From assembly GCA_045643825.1 (NCBI GenBank), contig JAZRFV010000084.1, forward strand, positions 47,946 through 71,945: a stretch of 24,000 nt of DNA, written 5' to 3'. Shown piece after piece: positions 8,926 through 19,470 of this stretch (positions are counted from its first letter, which is position 1; every line of letters begins with the position of its first letter). The notes under the pieces are model-generated. The model did no database searches. It had not been told where the DNA came from and saw only the letters and a program-made list of their open reading frames with translations. The DNA comes from Candidatus Scatosoma sp. Lineage in GTDB: Bacteria; Bacillota; Clostridia; Christensenellales; Borkfalkiaceae. A program made the position numbers and the translations under genes.

Positions 8926-10503
8926 ATGTTACAGGTTACAGGGGTATCCCTTCAATTTGGCAGTAAAAAGTTGTTTGAAGACGTAAATTTGAAGTTTACG
9001 AAGGGAAACTGCTATGGTATCATTGGTGCAAACGGTGCAGGCAAATCTACCTTCTTAAAGGTACTTTCCGGGGAGCTTGAACCCCAAAAGGGTTTCGTTT
9101 CTTTGGACAAGAATGAACGTATGTCCGTTTTGCAACAAAACCAAAATATGTATGACAATGAAACGGTTTTGCGTACCGTTATGCTTGGTTACAAGCGTTT
9201 GGTCGAAATCATGGATGAAAAGGATGCTTTGTACGCAAAGCCTGACTTTTCGGAAGAAGATGGCGTTCGCGCAGCGGATTTGGAAAGCGAATTTGCTGAA
9301 ATGAACGGCTATGATGCGGAATTCCAAGCCGCACAGCTACTTAACGCATTGGATATTGGTGAAGAATACCACTATTCGTTGATGAGTGATTTGGATGCAA
9401 AGCAAAAGGTGCGTGTATTGCTTGCACAGGCATTGTTCGGCGATCCTGACGTATTGCTTTTGGACGAGCCTACCAACAACCTTGACATTAAAACGGTTAG
9501 ATGGCTTGAAAACTATTTGATGGACTTTGAAAATACCATCATTATCGTTTCCCACAACCGTCACTTCCTTAATAAAGTATGTACCAACATTTGCGACGTT
9601 GACTTTGGTAAAATCAACATGTACGTTGGTAACTACGATTTCTGGTATCAAACCAGCCAATTGCTTGCGCGTCAACAAAAGGACCAAAACAAGAAAGCAG
9701 AGCAAAGAGCGAAGGAATTGCAAGAATTTATTGCGCGTTTCGCGGCAAACGCGTCCAAGTCTCGTCAGGCTACCTCGCGTAAGAAAGAGCTTGAAAAGCT
9801 TACGATTAACGACTTTAAGCCGTCCCTTCGTAAATATCCCTTCATTGATTTCAAGTTTGAAAAAGACATTGGCAACGATATCCTTATCGTAGAGGACTTG
9901 ACCAAGGAAGGTTACTTTGAAAAGGTTTCCTTCAGTGTTCAGCGTGATGAAAAAATCGGTATCGTATCCGATAAGAGTACCACTCTTACGATGCTCTACG
10001 ATATTTTGATGGGTAAAGAACAGCCCGACTCTGGTACGGTGAAGTGGGGTAAAACGATTTCCGTTTCCTATTTCCCTCAAAACAACAACGATTACTTCAT
10101 GGGTTGCGACTTGAACTTGGTGGAATGGCTTTCGCAATACTCCAACGACCATTTCGAAGAATATCTTCGTGGTTGGCTGGGTAGAATGCTTTTCTCGGGC
10201 GAAGAAGCGTTGAAGAAGGCAAAGGTGCTTTCCGGTGGCGAAAAGGTACGCTGTATGCTTGCTAAAATGATGCTTGAGGGCAGCAATTTCCTTATTTTTG
10301 ACGAACCGACCAACCACCTTGATCTCGAATCGATTACCGCACTTAACAATGGTTTAAGCAATTATAAGGGCTGTATGTTGTTGACCTCGCACGACCAAGA
10401 ATTGATGAATACCGTTGCAAACCGTATTATCGAAATCAACGATAAGAAGACCTACGATAGACCTGTTACCTACGACGAATATATCGACGAAACACATTCT
10501 TAA
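8926..10503 (+). CDS. ABC-F family ATPase, YbiT-like (two nucleotide-binding domains, no membrane domain). The second Walker A is degenerate.
   Basis: NBD1 has GIIGANGAGKSTF and VLLLDEPTNNLD. The interdomain linker is RFAANASKSRQATSRKKELEKL. NBD2 has LSGGEKVR, FLIFDEPTNHLD and LLTSHD. The overall order matches my recollection of E. coli YbiT. Confidence 0.85.
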   Translation: MLQVTGVSLQFGSKKLFEDVNLKFTKGNCYGIIGANGAGKSTFLKVLSGELEPQKGFVSLDKNERMSVLQQNQNMYDNETVLRTVMLGYKRLVEIMDEKDALYAKPDFSEEDGVRAADLESEFAEMNGYDAEFQAAQLLNALDIGEEYHYSLMSDLDAKQKVRVLLAQALFGDPDVLLLDEPTNNLDIKTVRWLENYLMDFENTIIIVSHNRHFLNKVCTNICDVDFGKINMYVGNYDFWYQTSQLLARQQKDQNKKAEQRAKELQEFIARFAANASKSRQATSRKKELEKLTINDFKPSLRKYPFIDFKFEKDIGNDILIVEDLTKEGYFEKVSFSVQRDEKIGIVSDKSTTLTMLYDILMGKEQPDSGTVKWGKTISVSYFPQNNNDYFMGCDLNLVEWLSQYSNDHFEEYLRGWLGRMLFSGEEALKKAKVLSGGEKVRCMLAKMMLEGSNFLIFDEPTNHLDLESITALNNGLSNYKGCMLLTSHDQELMNTVANRIIEINDKKTYDRPVTYDEYIDETHS

Positions 10504-11515: not shown

Positions 11516-13448
<1,933 letters not shown>

Positions 13449-13609: not shown

Positions 13610-13638
13610 TTGCATTTTAATAAAAATTGTGTTATAAT
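13610..13638 (+). promoter_or_regulatory. Sigma-A-type promoter with an extended -10: TTGCAT, 17-bp spacer (ending TGt), TATAAT. It heads the dCMP deaminase-ppiB-purB string.
   Basis: TTGCAT is at 13610-13615, TGT at 13630-13632 and TATAAT at 13633-13638. The RBS AAAGGAGGAG is at 13661-13670. Confidence 0.55.
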
Positions 13639-13677
13639 TTATCCAGTATGTATAGCCGTAAAAGGAGGAGTGTTTTT

Positions 13678-14136
13678 ATGGGAATGAATAAATGGGATAA
13701 ACGTTTTATGGCTTTGACGGAAACGGTGGCTACGTGGTCGAGCTGTTATCAGGAAAACCGTCACGTTGGTGCGATTATTGTAAAAGATAAGCGCGTATTG
13801 ACTACGGGGTATAATGGCGCACCTGCAGGTATCAAAAGTTGCGAAGAAAAAGGGGAATGCTTACGCCGTAAGCTGAATATTGCAAGCGGGACGAAGCACG
13901 AGCTTTGTTTTGCTGTTCACGCGGAACAAAATGCTATTATTCAGGCGGCTCGTTCTGGTATTAATATCAGCGGTGCAACCCTTTATTGTACGCATCAGCC
14001 TTGCGTTATATGCGCAAAAATCATTATCAACGCAGGCATTACGCGCGTTGTATATAAAAATGGTTATCCTGACGAATTCTCTTTGCAATTGTTTGAAGAA
14101 GCAAAGGTACTCGTTGAGAAATATGAAGAAGAATAA
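13678..14136 (+). CDS. Deoxycytidylate (dCMP) deaminase, ComEB-like zinc deaminase.
   Basis: The zinc-binding motifs HAEQNAI and PCVICAKIIINAGI (CDA fold HAE...PCxxC) are present. The start is set at ATG 13678, 8 nt after AAAGGAGGAG. The tracked 13627 start would overlap the promoter -10. Confidence 0.85.
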   Translation: MGMNKWDKRFMALTETVATWSSCYQENRHVGAIIVKDKRVLTTGYNGAPAGIKSCEEKGECLRRKLNIASGTKHELCFAVHAEQNAIIQAARSGINISGATLYCTHQPCVICAKIIINAGITRVVYKNGYPDEFSLQLFEEAKVLVEKYEEE

Positions 14137-14148
14137 GAGGTATATATT

Positions 14149-14670
14149 ATGAGCAATCCTATCGTTACTTTTGAAATGGAAAACGGTAAAACCTTTAAGG
14201 CGGAGCTTTACCCTGAAAAAGCGCCTAATACGGTAAACAACTTTTTGTCGTTGGTAAACAAGGGTTTCTATAATGGCGTAATCTTTCACCGCGTTATCGC
14301 AGGTTTTATGATTCAAGGTGGTGATCCCGACGGTATGGGTACGGGTGGTCCTGGTTATCGTATCAAGGGAGAATTCTCGGGTAACGGCTTTACGCAAAAC
14401 GACATCGCGCACGAAAGAGGTGTTTTGTCGATGGCTCGTGCACAACATCCCGACTCTGCTGGTTCGCAATTCTTCGTTATGCATGATGATGCGGAATATT
14501 TGGATGGACAATATGCTGCATTCGGCCGTGTAATTGAAGGCATGGAAACGGTGGACGAAATCGCAAATATTAAGACGGATTGGTATGATAAACCTTACGA
14601 AGAACAAAAGATGAAATCCGTTACGGCGGAAACCTTTGGCGTAGAGTACGCGGAACCTATCAAAGCGTAA
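14149..14670 (+). CDS. ppiB: Peptidyl-prolyl cis-trans isomerase, cyclophilin type.
   Basis: Cyclophilin signatures are FHRVIAGFMIQGGDP, GSQFFV and LDGQYAAFGRVIEGMETVDEI. Confidence 0.9.
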   Translation: MSNPIVTFEMENGKTFKAELYPEKAPNTVNNFLSLVNKGFYNGVIFHRVIAGFMIQGGDPDGMGTGGPGYRIKGEFSGNGFTQNDIAHERGVLSMARAQHPDSAGSQFFVMHDDAEYLDGQYAAFGRVIEGMETVDEIANIKTDWYDKPYEEQKMKSVTAETFGVEYAEPIKA

Positions 14671-14680
14671 GAGGTATACG

Positions 14681-16117
14681 ATGGTTGATTACAGCGTTTA
14701 TACAAATCCCTTAATGACTCGTTATGCTAGCAAGGAAATGCAGCACGCTTTTTCCGACGAAAAACGTTTTAAGCTTTGGAGAAAACTGTGGGTGGCGCTT
14801 GCCGAAGCAGAAATGGAGCTTGGCCTAAACGTCACGCAGGAGCAGGTGGACGAATTGAAACAATACGCGGACGATATCGATTACGAATTGGCTGCTAAAT
14901 TTGAAAGAGAAGTTCGTCACGACGTTATGGCGCACGTACACGCTTATGGCGAATATGCGAAAAAAGCAATGCCCATTATTCACTTGGGTGCAACGAGCTG
15001 TTTTGTAAATTGCAACGCCGAAGCGATTATGTTGGACGAAGCATTGGATATTATCTTGAAAAAGCTCGTCAACGTAATGGATAAGCTGAAGAAATTTGCA
15101 TTGCAATATAAAGACTTGCCTACGCTTGGCTTTACCCATTTACAGCCTGCACAATTGACCACTGTTGGCAAAAGAGCAACGCTTTGGTTACAGGATTTGG
15201 AGATGGATTATATCAACCTTATCCACGCCAAAGAAACGATTAAGTTGCGTGGTGTAAAGGGTACAACGGGTACGCAAGCAAGCTTTTTAGAGCTTTTCAA
15301 CGGTGACGAGGAAAAGGTTAAGGAATTGCAAAAGCGTGTTGTTGCAAAAATGGGTTACGACAAGGTATATGGCGTTACGGGGCAAACATACCCTCGTAAG
15401 CTTGATTACAATATTTTGTGCGTATTGTCGCAAATCGCCCAAAGTGCTTATAAATTCTCTAATGATATTCGTATTTTACAAAATATGAAAGAGATTGAGG
15501 AGCCGTTTGCAAAGAAACAAATCGGTTCGTCGGCGATGGCATATAAACGCAATCCTATGCGTTCTGAACGAATCGGTGCATTGGCAAGATACGTAATTTC
15601 TTTGCCTATGAACAGCGCTTTGACGGCTTCTACGCAATGGTTTGAAAGAACCTTGGATGATTCGGCAAACCGCCGTATTGTAAACGCGCAGGCCTTCTTG
15701 GGGGTAGATGCCATTTTGAACGTATATATGGACGTTGCGGATAACCTTGTGGTTTATGAAAAGGTAATCGAAAAGCATATCCGTGCAGAGCTTCCATTTA
15801 TGGCAACGGAAAATATTATGATGGAATGCGTGAAGGCTGGCGGTAACCGTCAAGAATTGCACGAACGTATCCGCGTTTTATCCATGGAGGCAGGTAAAAC
15901 CGTAAAGGTAGAAGGTGAAGATAATAACCTTATAGACCTTATCAAGCAAGATGAAATGTTCCGACCTGTTTGGGATCATTTGGGTGATATTCTTGACGGG
16001 AAAAACTTTATCGGTAGGGCTCCTTCGCAAACGGTTGAATTTATCGAGGAAGAAATCGATCCCATTTTAAATAAGCATGCGGATTTGCTTGGTGAAAAGG
16101 GTGACGTTCGTTTATAA
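14681..16117 (+). CDS. purB: Adenylosuccinate lyase.
   Basis: The fumarate-lyase signature GSSAMAYKRNPMRSE is present. The N-terminus (YTNPLMTRYASKEM) is typical of long-form PurB. The length is 478 aa. Confidence 0.95.
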   Translation: MVDYSVYTNPLMTRYASKEMQHAFSDEKRFKLWRKLWVALAEAEMELGLNVTQEQVDELKQYADDIDYELAAKFEREVRHDVMAHVHAYGEYAKKAMPIIHLGATSCFVNCNAEAIMLDEALDIILKKLVNVMDKLKKFALQYKDLPTLGFTHLQPAQLTTVGKRATLWLQDLEMDYINLIHAKETIKLRGVKGTTGTQASFLELFNGDEEKVKELQKRVVAKMGYDKVYGVTGQTYPRKLDYNILCVLSQIAQSAYKFSNDIRILQNMKEIEEPFAKKQIGSSAMAYKRNPMRSERIGALARYVISLPMNSALTASTQWFERTLDDSANRRIVNAQAFLGVDAILNVYMDVADNLVVYEKVIEKHIRAELPFMATENIMMECVKAGGNRQELHERIRVLSMEAGKTVKVEGEDNNLIDLIKQDEMFRPVWDHLGDILDGKNFIGRAPSQTVEFIEEEIDPILNKHADLLGEKGDVRL

Positions 16118-16126
16118 GAGGAAATT

Positions 16127-16291
16127 ATGAAGAAAAATACATTACAATACATTGCCATTGGGTTGTTGACTTTAGGTATTGCAATTTTGTTGGGTGTTGG
16201 CATTTGGCTTGGCGTATCGGGTTCGAAGGACGTGCCTACTCCTCCTACCAGCTCCGAATACGACGATGGCGAATGGACAAATAATTATTGA
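16127..16291 (+). CDS. Untracked 54-codon ORF encoding a small membrane-anchored or secreted peptide. It is a candidate precursor or accessory of the downstream cassette.
   Basis: My translation is MKKNTLQYIAIGLLTLGIAILLGVGIWLGVSGSKDVPTPPTSSEYDDGEWTNNY*. The RBS AGAGGA lies 5 nt before the ATG. The ORF starts 9 nt after the purB stop and ends 3 nt before the next start. It falls below the ORF-track length cut-off. Confidence 0.5.
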   Translation: MKKNTLQYIAIGLLTLGIAILLGVGIWLGVSGSKDVPTPPTSSEYDDGEWTNNY

Positions 16292-16294
16292 TTT

Positions 16295-17032
16295 ATGATA
16301 TACGAAATTGCAGGGCTTCGCGTTAAAATTGAAAATCAGTACGATTTCACCACGAAGTTTTGCCACGAATATCTTTCAGAGGATCAAACCTCGCCCGTGG
16401 ATATCGTTGCAAAGGTTACGGCGGAGGAATTTGCGGCCGAAAGAGCCACCTCTGAAGCGTTTTCGGATGGATATATTGAAAATATATGCCTGTATCGTAG
16501 CTTGTGTAATCAAATCCCCGTGTTGGGGCGGATGTTGTTACATTGCGCCGTGTTAGAATATGATGGAAAGGGTTACGCCTTTTTAGGCCGTAGTGGGACA
16601 GGGAAATCCACACATACCCGCCTTTGGAAAAAGTATTTGGGCACCCCGAGGATGATTAACGGTGATAAGCCGATTTTACAATTCATCGGGGAAGGCTTTC
16701 TTGCCCATGGAACTCCTTGGCGAGGTAAAGAGTCGTGGGGGATTCGTTCGTTTGCACCCCTTTGTGGACTTTGCTTTTTAGAACAGGCGAAGGAAAACTC
16801 TATACGAAGGTTAACGTCTTCCGAGGTTTCTGCTCGTTTGTTTGGGCAAATTCTTTTACCGGAAGAGGAAGAAAACGTTGTTTCCACGTTAGAGCTTGCG
16901 GATAAATTGATTGCAACAACTCCTGCATATTTATTGAAGTGCGACATTTCAAAAGAAGCTGTAAAGCTGTCGTTCGAGCAATTGACAGGCTTGTCGTTTG
17001 AAGAAAGGGAACAATCCCTTGAAGAGGTATAG
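16295..17032 (+). CDS. HPr kinase/phosphorylase C-terminal-domain-like P-loop protein (HprK-related kinase of peptide-modification clusters).
   Basis: The P-loop context HCAVLEYDGKGYAFLGRSGTGKSTHTRLW parallels the HprK H-G-x-L-x(n)-G-x-SG-x-GKS motif. The N-terminal Y-x-x-x-GL-x-V-x-I-E pattern is typical of HprK-related kinases. It is adjacent to a PqqD-family gene. Confidence 0.6.
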   Translation: MIYEIAGLRVKIENQYDFTTKFCHEYLSEDQTSPVDIVAKVTAEEFAAERATSEAFSDGYIENICLYRSLCNQIPVLGRMLLHCAVLEYDGKGYAFLGRSGTGKSTHTRLWKKYLGTPRMINGDKPILQFIGEGFLAHGTPWRGKESWGIRSFAPLCGLCFLEQAKENSIRRLTSSEVSARLFGQILLPEEEENVVSTLELADKLIATTPAYLLKCDISKEAVKLSFEQLTGLSFEEREQSLEEV

Positions 17033-17034
17033 AT

Positions 17035-17298
17035 ATGAAGATTAAAAAAGGCTTTGTTCTCCGTGTGGTTGGTGGCGAAAACGTCGTTGTGCCCGTTGGC
17101 GCAATGAGTAAAACCTTCCATGGTATGATTAATCTCAATGAAACGGGGGCTTTTATGTGGAAGTTTTTCTCCGAGGAGCATACCTTGGAAGAAGGTGTTG
17201 CCGCATTGCTGTCGGAATATGAGGTGGAAGAGGATCGTGCTCGCGCTGACGTTCAAAAATTCATGGATGCAATCATGGGGAACGGTTTTGCTGAATAA
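17035..17298 (+). CDS. PqqD family protein (RiPP recognition element / peptide chaperone).
   Basis: It is 87 aa. The pattern VVVPVGAMSKTFHGMINLNETGAFMWKFFSEEHTLEE...VEEDRARADVQKFMDAIMGNGF matches the beta-strands plus winged-helix layout of PqqD/RRE proteins. The call is made by recognition only. Confidence 0.7.
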   Translation: MKIKKGFVLRVVGGENVVVPVGAMSKTFHGMINLNETGAFMWKFFSEEHTLEEGVAALLSEYEVEEDRARADVQKFMDAIMGNGFAE

Positions 17299-17768
17299 TG
17301 GAACAAATTGAAAAGCAAACAATTGAAGAGGTATTGTTATCACACGGAAAATATGTCGGACCTACGGTTGGTGTCAGTATGCTACCGATGTTGAAAAATC
17401 GTCGCGATACCATTGTTGTGTTGGCAAAAACGGAGCGATTGAAGCGCCTGGATGTAGCATTATATCGCCGTGGAGATGCCTATATTTTACACCGTGTATT
17501 GCAACCGATTGAAGGTGGATATATCATTCGAGGTGATAATTGCTACTCCGACGAGAAGGTGCCTGAAAACGCCGTTATCGGCGTTTTATCAGAATTTTTC
17601 CGCAAGGGAAAGCATTTCTACTGTACGGATAAAAAGTACCTTAAATACGCGGAAAAACGCTTAAAAACCTATAAAGTAAGACGTTTTTTTGTCTTGTTAA
17701 AGGCGAGATGTAGGAACGGTGCAAAGCGTGTCCTTTACGCGTTTGGTTTAAGAAAGAAGAGAAAATAA
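17298..17768 (+). CDS. S24/S26-family serine peptidase with an S26B (SipW/Sec11-like) Ser/His motif pattern and no N-terminal membrane anchor.
   Basis: The motifs are GVSMLPML (nucleophile Ser box), YILHRVL (HR[IV] box in place of the bacterial KR[IV]) and IIRGDNCYSDEKV (GDN box). The N-terminus is hydrophilic and the C-terminus is a basic tail. The start ATG overlaps the PqqD stop (TAATG). Confidence 0.6.
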   Translation: MEQIEKQTIEEVLLSHGKYVGPTVGVSMLPMLKNRRDTIVVLAKTERLKRLDVALYRRGDAYILHRVLQPIEGGYIIRGDNCYSDEKVPENAVIGVLSEFFRKGKHFYCTDKKYLKYAEKRLKTYKVRRFFVLLKARCRNGAKRVLYAFGLRKKRK

Positions 17769-17770
17769 CG

Positions 17771-19447
17771 ATGAAAACAAAAGCAAATAACAAAGGAAAA
17801 ATTTGGTTAAAAAAAGAGACGAGACCTTACCGCTCGTCTATCCTTTTTTTGACGAGTCTTGCCGTCTTTACGACGGTATTTTCCATTTTATTTGCGTACA
17901 TGGTGCGTTATCTCATTAATAGCGCATCGAATAAAGAAACGGAAAAACTGTGGCTTTTTGCTGGTTTACTTTTAGGATTTTTGCTTTTAAAAATTGTCTT
18001 GAAGGTAATGCGTGGCTATTTCTCGGAAAAGGCAAATGCAAAGATGACTGCAGGGCTTCGTACTCGTTTATATGGTAAAATATTGCGCTCTGATTACGCG
18101 GCAGTACAGCAATATCACAGCGGAGACTTAATCACTCGTTTAACCACCGACATTAATGAGGTTTCTGCGTATTCTGTTTCCTTATTACCTGCGGTTGTGG
18201 CTATGGCAATGCAATGCGTTGGATCTATTGTGGCTCTTTTGACGATTGATCCGTTATTTACCGCTATTTATGTGTTCGCAGGGGTAATATTTGCCGCTAT
18301 CACGATGTTTTTTAGAAAGCAATTGAAAAAGCATCATAAAGAGGTGATGTCGGCGGATGCGGAATCCCGTTCGTATATGCAGGAAAGTATTTCCTCACTT
18401 TTGACCGTAAAGGCTTATGGGGTTGAGGGGAAGAGCACGGATAAAGCGGAGGACTTCGCACAAAGCTATTATCAAAAGCGTATGAAACGCAACGGCTTGC
18501 GCGCAGGGATGAATGCAATTTTCTCGCTTTTGAGTAATTTTGGCTTAATTTTTGCCGTTGTATGGTGCAGTGTAAGTATATTGTACGGTAGAACGACTGA
18601 CTACGGTTCGATTTTGTCGGCAATTCTACTATTGATGCAGTTGCAATCGCCTCTTTCTTCATTCTCGACGATACCACCTGCGTACTATGCTCGCATAGCG
18701 AGTGGCGAGCGTTTGGCTGAAATTGAAGATATCACCGTAGAAATAACGGAAGAAGAAGGTGACGGACAGACAATTTACGAAAACCTTGCGAATATTTCCT
18801 TTAAAAACCTTGCGTTTACGTATGGTCGAGAGGAAATTTTAAGCGATATGTCGGCGCAAATTAATAAAGGTGAAATCGTTTGCTTAACGGGGCCGTCGGG
18901 CGCAGGGAAAAGCACAATATTCAAACTTTTACTGCAAGTGTATCAACCGACGTCGGGGAGTATGGTTTTGCAGATGCAAGAAGGTGAAAGCCCTTTAACA
19001 GCAAAAGAAAGAGATTTGTTTGCTTATGTCCCGCAGGGGAATTTCCTTTTCTCGGGTACAATTTATGAAAATCTTGCATTTTTCTCAAAAGAGACAAATT
19101 TGGAAGTATTAAAGGAAAAAATGCTCTCTTGCATAAAGACGGCTTGTGCAGAATTTGTTTTTGAGCTCCCTCAAGGTCTTGACACTGTTTTATCGGAAGG
19201 TGGCGCAGGTTTGTCGGAAGGGCAATTACAACGCTTGGCTGTGGCAAGGGCATTGCTTTCGGAACGTCCTATTTTGTTGTTAGACGAAGCGACCAGCGCG
19301 TTGGACGCAGATACGGAAAAACGTTTGATTGAAAATATTGCAAATCTCAACAATAAAACCTGCATATTGGTTACCCATCGACCTAAAGCGTTGGAGGTTG
19401 CCGATAAGGTTTTGCATATTGAAAACGGAAAAGTAACACAAAAATAA
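17771..19447 (+). CDS. ABC exporter, fused permease plus ATPase (type I exporter half-transporter).
   Basis: The N-terminal half is hydrophobic with about six transmembrane segments. The NBD has Walker A LTGPSGAGKST, signature LSEGQLQRLAVARAL and Walker B ILLLDEATSALD. There is no C39 peptidase domain. Confidence 0.9.
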   Translation: MKTKANNKGKIWLKKETRPYRSSILFLTSLAVFTTVFSILFAYMVRYLINSASNKETEKLWLFAGLLLGFLLLKIVLKVMRGYFSEKANAKMTAGLRTRLYGKILRSDYAAVQQYHSGDLITRLTTDINEVSAYSVSLLPAVVAMAMQCVGSIVALLTIDPLFTAIYVFAGVIFAAITMFFRKQLKKHHKEVMSADAESRSYMQESISSLLTVKAYGVEGKSTDKAEDFAQSYYQKRMKRNGLRAGMNAIFSLLSNFGLIFAVVWCSVSILYGRTTDYGSILSAILLLMQLQSPLSSFSTIPPAYYARIASGERLAEIEDITVEITEEEGDGQTIYENLANISFKNLAFTYGREEILSDMSAQINKGEIVCLTGPSGAGKSTIFKLLLQVYQPTSGSMVLQMQEGESPLTAKERDLFAYVPQGNFLFSGTIYENLAFFSKETNLEVLKEKMLSCIKTACAEFVFELPQGLDTVLSEGGAGLSEGQLQRLAVARALLSERPILLLDEATSALDADTEKRLIENIANLNNKTCILVTHRPKALEVADKVLHIENGKVTQK

Positions 19448-19470
19448 GAAGGACCGAAAGGTCCTTCTTT
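19447..19470 (+). terminator. Rho-independent terminator closing the long plus-strand gene string.
   Basis: The hairpin AGAAGGACC-GAAA-GGTCCTTCT is followed by TT. It begins at the last base of the stop codon. Confidence 0.8.

Follow-up and report, generated by a model that had tools for sequence, protein, structure and literature searches.

Gene organization of the locus

The features located in the window (the whole stretch of DNA analysed, 24,000 nucleotides) are collected in Table 1, together with the leader peptide genes found on other contigs of the source genome (G000). The ORF under study (P0001) runs from an ATG at 16127 to a TGA at 16289-16291 and encodes 54 aa; the position and the product given for it in an earlier note on this DNA agreed exactly with our reading of the sequence. 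It begins 9 nt downstream of the purB stop codon (16115-16117) and ends 3 nt before the ATG of the kinase gene (16295), and this 3-nt spacing is conserved, in agreement with the tight coupling to a peptide maturation and export cassette that had been proposed. The Shine-Dalgarno motif AGAGGA, which shares the last base of the purB stop codon, had also been recognized, but its spacing to the ATG is 4 nt and not 5 nt. Neither a promoter-like nor a terminator-like site was seen on the + strand in the gap between purB and the ORF. The ORF and the cassette are presumably co-transcribed, and their translation is probably coupled.

Table 1. Positions of the features of the purB-kinase region in the window and of the leader peptide genes on other contigs of the source genome (G000).
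Feature	Position	Strand	Basis
purB (adenylosuccinate lyase), upstream in the same gene run	14681-16117	+	TIGR00928 (E = 5e-121)
Shine-Dalgarno motif AGAGGA	16117-16122	+	sequence
54-codon ORF (P0001), N-terminally anchored product with acidic tail and C-terminal W-T-N-N-Y	16127-16291	+	sequence, homologues, positional orthologues, selection
Signal-anchor part (aa 1-32), MKK and approximately 29 uncharged, mostly hydrophobic residues, no lipobox Cys	16127-16222	+	
Pro/Ser/Thr-rich acidic linker (aa 33-49)	16223-16273	+	computed composition and charge
C-terminal tag W-T-N-N-Y, stop codon directly after	16274-16288	+	pattern counts, codon variation
HprK-like P-loop kinase (LppK counterpart)	16295-17032	+	Walker A GRSGTGKST; ScmC (7e-9); fold
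Discrete PqqD-type RRE (LppB counterpart)	17035-17298	+	PF05402 (1e-16)
Anchorless signal-peptidase-I-like Ser/His/Asp peptidase, S26-type (LppS counterpart)	17298-17768	+	triad, fold
MsbA-like ABC exporter without C39 peptidase domain (LppD counterpart)	17771-19447	+	PF00664, PF00005
Hairpin terminator closing the gene run	19446-19469	.	only good hairpin found
Leader peptide gene (G000)	C89:14575-14715 (L212:3076-3216)		
Leader peptide gene (G000)	C86:68976-69110 (L213:2977-3111)		
Leader peptide gene (G000)	C86:143180-143311		
Leader peptide gene (G000)	C86:63380-63502		
Leader peptide gene (G000)	C63:1980-2114		
Leader peptide gene (G000)	C62:21143-21289		
Leader peptide gene (G000)	C21, match 12889-13002	minus	
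Leader peptide gene (G000)	C61, match 9798-9902	minus	

The AlphaFold model of the kinase (pLDDT, 93) gave PEPCK and HprK/P as the best Foldseek matches (E = 1e-6 to 1e-5); in public precomputed annotation, all of its close homologues are placed in Pfam PF27840. For the PqqD-type RRE, the best PDB sequence matches were 9x90 (PbaB1; 5e-4) and 9x8z (LppB; 7e-3), and in this weak alignment the counterparts of LppB N33, Y60, D70, and F74 are retained. The motifs S27-M-x-P, H65-R, and G79-D-N (D80) of the peptidase are invariant in 25 homologues. A search of the PDB with the peptidase sequence returned nothing, whereas the fold search with its model (pLDDT, 94) gave SpsB, SipA, and LexA as the best Foldseek matches; the match to TIGR02228 was weak (4e-5). 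In the exporter, the match to the bacteriocin_ABC model begins at model position 158.

This gene order was compared with that of the linear polyphosphorylated peptide (LPP) clusters (lppA-K-B-S-D-N), which were first described in 2026, in Bacilli only, from Paenibacillus alginolyticus DSM5050 (Popov et al., Nat Commun 2026; PMC13381572). In that system, LppB binds a YxxP leader, of which the Tyr and Pro are fixed by LppB residues N33, Y60, D70, and F74; LppS cuts after the leader; and LppK polyphosphorylates Ser3 of the core and did not phosphorylate the Thr and Tyr variants of this target Ser, while the related lasso-type HprK-like kinases act on a C-terminal residue (PMC13381572). Clostridia, lipoproteins, and membrane anchors are not mentioned in the LPP paper (PMC13381572). 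Downstream of the 54-codon ORF, the same genes occur in the same order (HprK-like kinase, discrete PqqD RRE, anchorless SipW-type peptidase, and MsbA-like exporter). Unlike in the LPP clusters, there is no LppN nucleotidyltransferase in the window (no NTP-transferase was detected among the nine ORFs scanned between 14681 and 22369), and the host is not a member of the Bacilli but belongs to an uncultured gut genus of the Clostridia. By gene content and order, the cassette is a reduced K-B-S-D clostridial relative of the LPP clusters of Bacilli.

Of the 100 genomes of the genus that were sampled, 80 had the kinase gene, as did 24 of the 26 high-quality ones. The purB-kinase adjacency is kept in most Scatosoma genomes, and in positions 13610-19470 of the window the cassette is joined to purB without a visible promoter or terminator. 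RiPP-type clusters are not usually arranged in this way, and the arrangement suggests that the role of the cassette is a housekeeping-like one. The reduced cassette is a near-core, purB-fused operon of an abundant genus of uncultured gut Clostridia.

Conservation of the 54-codon ORF

Public gene calls contain the 54-aa protein and three homologues (53-56 aa, 57-76% identity). In approximately 21 of the 81 kinase-bearing genomes of the genus (the source genome included), the same slot between purB and the kinase gene is filled by an ORF of the same architecture encoding 45-91 aa. The last five codons vary synonymously (ACA/ACG/ACT, AAT/AAC, and TAT/TAC, with TAA/TGA for the stop), with W-T-x-N-Y being kept, and the pairwise dN/dS within the family was 0.17-0.31 in the four computable pairs, dS being saturated in the two other pairs. 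Neither the lack of conservation nor the non-coding substitution pattern against which the earlier note had cautioned was thus found, and the ORF is a real, conserved gene under purifying selection. Although the ORF is short and the Pfam and NCBIfam scans gave no family match, the probability that it is merely a chance open frame in the purB-kinase spacer is negligible, since the frame stays open in these approximately 21 genomes, ends each time at the conserved motif and a stop codon, has a good ribosome-binding site, and shows the synonymous variation and low dN/dS described above.

Anchor and tail architecture

The protein consists of an MKK n-region, an uncharged and mostly hydrophobic stretch of approximately 29 residues without Cys, and a 22-residue tail with a net charge of -4 and a Ser/Thr content of 27%; the basic n-region, hydrophobic stretch, and acidic tail rich in Pro, Ser, and Thr recognized earlier were all borne out. 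Having no Cys, it lacks the lipobox by which a lipoprotein (SPase II substrate) would be recognized. Among the 21 positional orthologues, the n-region carries a charge of +2 to +8, the h-region has 18-29 residues, and the net charge of the tail ranges from -2 to -15. A lipobox Cys closes the h-region in approximately 14 of these 21, and the rest, including the protein of the source genome, have a plain TM or signal anchor; in the close relatives, of which the kinases are 85-86% identical, L-V-A-C or F-V-A-C is found in place of L-G-V-S. All orthologues end with W-T-x-N-Y, except for two variants (WTSSY and WTNNH). The N-termini of the orthologues, which switch between a TM anchor and a lipobox, do not align, and the last five residues are near-invariant. 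To the question of whether the tail or the N-terminal half is conserved, the answer is thus the tail, namely, its C-terminus. What is conserved as a property is anchoring combined with an acidic tail, and the tail is predicted by the positive-inside rule to lie outside the cell.

Comparison with LppA and distribution in the genus

The ORF occupies the position of lppA, and its product of 54 aa falls within the range of 35-200 aa for LppA-type precursors. Unlike LppA, however, it contains neither the YxxPxVLxHQxIxFETxxS leader nor any [Y/W]xxP motif; a membrane anchor is found in place of the leader, and it is the C-terminus, not the N-terminus, that is conserved. The RRE-binding motif [YW]xxPx[LVIFAM] is absent from the protein and from all 21 positional orthologues, and a leader-only profile gave at most 1.3 bits on the 21 anchored ORFs. 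A degenerate leader, Y-I-A-I-G-L, was considered in the N-terminus and was rejected; it is part of a continuous hydrophobic run and is not followed by a D-V-I-x-T-S box (see below). The proposal of a RiPP precursor with an N-terminal leader is therefore not supported: no RRE-binding motif is present, and the N-termini are anchors or lipobox signals. The LppB residues that fix the leader Tyr and Pro have retained counterparts in the RRE of the window, which points to a YxxP ligand.

The distribution of the ORF does not support the view that it encodes the precursor of the cassette, since an ORF of this kind is missing from about three quarters of the Scatosoma cassettes. In the kinase tree, ORFs of this type are found in one subclade (18 of 26 rows) and in none of the 23 rows outside it, a pattern that needs at least five changes; the kinases of this subclade are approximately 62-86% identical to that of the source genome. 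An ORF with the strict WTxNY ending is absent from 15 of the 24 high-quality cassette-bearing genomes. From the restriction of the ORF to one kinase subclade, it follows that the cassette existed, and persists, without the ORF.

Other anchored ORFs were observed in the slot before the kinase gene. In two basal Scatosoma lineages (L017:1358-1504 and L078:697-1002), the purB-kinase slot contains acidic ORFs of the lipoprotein type that end with ...N-W-I-G-Y... or ...D-W-I-G-G, not with W-T-x-N-Y; occupation of the slot may thus be older than one would conclude from the strict tag. In a MAG of Acutalibacteraceae (L083:2642-3273), a leader-bearing peptide gene is followed by a gene for a Ser/Thr-rich lipoprotein that ends 3 nt before the kinase gene, which gives a second, independent example of the slot being occupied by an anchored protein of low complexity. 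The recurrence of anchored ORFs at the three loci hints at a direct link with the kinase.

No other conserved small ORF was found within 6 kb of the Scatosoma cassettes, where only PqqD and GroES formed clusters, and a regular expression for leaders of the LppA type found none in the source genome or in approximately 157 loci.

Dispersed leader peptides as candidate precursors

Three anchorless ORFs with the C-terminal tag carry YxxP near the N-terminus and were the starting point for the profile of a leader family. With the profile built from these three, small open frames were found in 79 of the 101 genomes of the genus. The peptides of this family have 35-55 aa, with a paeninodin/LPP-type leader close to MKK-x-Y-x-x-P-x-L-x-V ... 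D-V-I-x-T-S followed by an acidic core of Gly, Asp, and Trp (alignment A3, 26 sequences). In our comparison, the T-S of the family is situated 19-20 residues past the Tyr, where the LppA consensus has its phospho-acceptor Ser. The source genome has eight paralogues (40-48 codons; Table 1), which are unannotated and anchorless, at least six with a clear ribosome-binding site; none is encoded on the contig of the window. In public databases, 81 clusters of leader peptides were found, all of them named hypothetical.

The leader peptide family exists and co-occurs with the kinase. Among 201 genomes of the order, which are related and thus not independent, a full-length kinase and the peptides were found together in six (three families), the kinase alone in two, the peptides alone in one, and neither in 192. 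Outside the genus, the peptides adjoin the cassette at L083 (the Acutalibacteraceae MAG mentioned above), at L113 and L124, and in G144; two of these cases are MAGs of Eubacteriales/Clostridia. Unlike in the LPP clusters, the leader-type peptides of the source genome are dispersed on other contigs and not encoded beside the enzymes. [quoted passage not shown] We consider the dispersed leader peptides to be the likely substrates of the cassette in the window. The likely precursors of the reduced cassette are multi-copy, dispersed, and unannotated. Of the two reservations expressed in the earlier note, one (that the hydrophobic segment is a genuine membrane anchor and that the real precursor gene lies elsewhere) is, in our judgement, the better reading, and the other (a different conserved small ORF in orthologous cassettes) came true in spirit: the family has eight copies in this genome, co-occurs with the kinase, and adjoins the cassette in other families.

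The tail of the 54-aa protein was then compared with the cores of these peptides. A Trp among the eight C-terminal residues, together with a net charge of -3 or below over the last 15, was found in 15 of 32 leader peptides and 16 of 21 anchored ORFs, versus 11 of the 1,733 long ORFs of the source genome. The profile of the leader peptide family aligns to the anchored ORFs over the last 10-25 residues only, with weak HMM E-values (0.004-1), and three or four of the leader peptides end with the exact WTxNY. The resemblance between the tail and the cores is one of composition and of a short motif.

The C-terminal W-T-x-N-Y tag

The DNA pattern for W-T-x-N-Y followed by a stop codon had 77 matches in the 101 genomes of the genus, versus four for the reversed-pattern control. 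In 200 other genomes of the order, there were 14 matches versus 43 for the control, that is, no enrichment; the stop-terminated matches examined outside the genus, at eight of the ten loci fetched outside the source genome, were in frames of 6-53 codons in which neither a start codon nor a signal peptide was seen. Judging from these counts, W-T-x-N-Y-COOH is a portable tag specific to the genus Candidatus Scatosoma. Within the genus, it ends small anchored proteins, many large lipoproteins with the Flg_new (Listeria-Bacteroides) repeat or with BspA-type LRR or beta-helix domains, low-complexity acidic lipoproteins, membrane proteins, and a few leader-bearing peptides. The 54-aa protein has the three properties by which we define a tagged protein (an export or anchor signal, an acidic stretch, and W-T-x-N-Y before the stop). 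The only other W-T-x-N-Y protein in the source genome is a lipoprotein of 694 aa (G000:C56; L157:2126-4210, minus strand) with nine Listeria-Bacteroides (Flg_new) repeats, which ends with S-W-T-Q-N-Y. Approximately 21 of the 77 tag occurrences in the genus (about a quarter) are located directly upstream of the kinase gene; a correlation between tag and cassette within the genus is uninformative, since the cassette is near-universal and the genomes are incomplete MAGs.

In scans of the 54-aa protein and the tagged proteins, no Pfam or NCBIfam model matched the C-terminal tag. No sorting enzyme was found beside the genes for the tagged lipoproteins, the neighbours being housekeeping genes, and no receptor for the tag was found. 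In the systems LPXTG/sortase, PEP-CTERM/exosortase, and GlyGly-CTERM/rhombosortase, a short lineage-specific C-terminal motif is likewise present on unrelated secreted proteins, and, as in such systems, a minimal tagged protein is encoded here beside a candidate processing system. Unlike in these systems, the protein terminates with W-T-x-N-Y itself, which is followed by neither a TM helix nor a basic cluster, and no sortase-like enzyme was found beside the W-T-x-N-Y genes.

Possible role of the 54-aa protein

We favour, with moderate confidence, the view that the ORF encodes a small membrane-anchored surface protein with a tethered, core-like tail, and not the leader-dependent precursor of the cassette. 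The N-terminus would hold the protein in the cytoplasmic membrane, as an uncleaved or SPase-I-type signal anchor in this genome and as a lipoprotein signal peptide in most sister species, and the short Pro/Ser/Thr-rich acidic tail would be displayed outside the cell, ending with W-T-x-N-Y-COOH. The ORF would be co-expressed with the LPP-like cassette of kinase, RRE, SpI-like leader peptidase, and exporter, by which the eight dispersed anchorless leader peptides with their acidic, Trp-terminated cores would be matured and exported. [quoted passage not shown] Its role could be that of a tethered analogue, of a partner in docking or immunity, of a competitor or an immunity-like decoy, or of a non-canonical substrate. 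In one subclade, the precursor slot would then be held by a membrane-anchored protein with a tail mimicking the peptide cores; for genome mining, the locus illustrates that the precursor need not be the small ORF found where a precursor is expected.

That unrelated surface lipoproteins carry the same five residues points to a surface-directed role of the peptides and allows a wider reading, which we put forward only tentatively and regard as less probable than its negation: W-T-x-N-Y-COOH would be a new genus-specific extracytoplasmic tag on the cassette peptides, the mini-lipoproteins, and the large adhesin-like lipoproteins, all of which would be directed to a single surface receptor or share a single step of attachment or processing, with the 54-aa protein as the minimal tethered client. 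In a bolder form, the kinase would phosphorylate the tails of the tagged surface proteins. If this reading is true, a RiPP-type pathway would be tied to the organization of the cell surface. The five-residue tag is a concrete handle for finding the partner of the peptides.

It is rather unlikely that the 54-aa protein, and perhaps other WTxNY-tagged proteins, are non-canonical substrates of the cassette. The C-terminal acidic W-T-x-N-Y would then serve the RRE or the kinase as a follower motif; phosphorylation by the kinase, ahead of export or in the course of it, would fall on Ser or Thr of the tail or on the terminal Tyr, and the exporter would help to move the highly anionic tail across the membrane. 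The position of the ORF in the lppA slot with its stop 3 nt before the kinase start, the share of the tags of the genus found in this slot, the Ser/Thr-rich tail, and the recurrence of anchored Ser/Thr-rich or acidic ORFs at L083, L017, and L078 are in favour of such a role, as is the modification of a C-terminal residue by the related lasso-type HprK-like kinases (PMC13381572). However, the ORF has no [Y/W]xxP motif while the RRE of the window keeps the residues for a YxxP ligand, LppK was inactive on the Thr and Tyr variants of its target Ser (PMC13381572), the ORF is confined to one kinase subclade, many high-quality cassette-bearing genomes have no strict WTxNY ORF, and cytoplasmic enzymes are unlikely to act on large lipoproteins exported by Sec.

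An unrelated neighbour, that is, a WTxNY surface lipoprotein gene inserted between purB and the kinase gene in one subclade without any functional tie, seems to us still less probable. Tagged genes do occur in housekeeping contexts (e.g., ZIP transporter/TrxB-like, argH/argC, and leuS-like), the tag is present outside the ORF-bearing subclade (e.g., in G001), and the cassette is found almost throughout the genus, including where the ORF is missing; nevertheless, about a quarter of the tags of the genus are found in this single slot, the ORF has been kept in most rows of a subclade of which the kinases have diverged to approximately 62-86% identity with that of the source genome, the 3-nt gap to the kinase start is conserved, and the tail resembles the cores of the likely substrates of the cassette.

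The Phr pro-peptides of Bacillus and the PapR pro-peptides of B. cereus are 40-60 aa long and consist of a signal peptide and a linker followed by a C-terminal pentapeptide that is conserved. The layout of the 54-aa protein is the same in size and in each of these parts, and a Sec-exported pro-peptide from which the C-terminal pentapeptide is released as an extracellular signal may be envisaged. Such a function is very improbable: RRNPP quorum sensing of this kind has an adjacent receptor and a species-specific mature peptide, whereas no RRNPP-type receptor or Opp genes are located beside the ORF, of which the neighbours are purB and the cassette, and the pentapeptide is nearly identical across species and not strain-specific. 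Moreover, the same pentapeptide ends lipoproteins of 200-700 aa, and most of the orthologues are lipid-anchored.

Tandem arrays with a shared tag variant

In two genomes of the set, genes for an acidic low-complexity lipoprotein and for a leader-bearing peptide are arranged in tandem (L166 at G100:C87:1500-4200, the same as L187; and L186 at G011:C2, the same as L188). The array in G100 has a third small ORF, and the members of each array share their tag variant, WTPNY in G100 and WTSNY in G011. Tandem neighbours with the same variant were counted as three WTPNY in G100, two WTSNY in G011, and two WTKNY in G008, and this sharing suggests a local exchange of 3' ends between lipoprotein and precursor genes.
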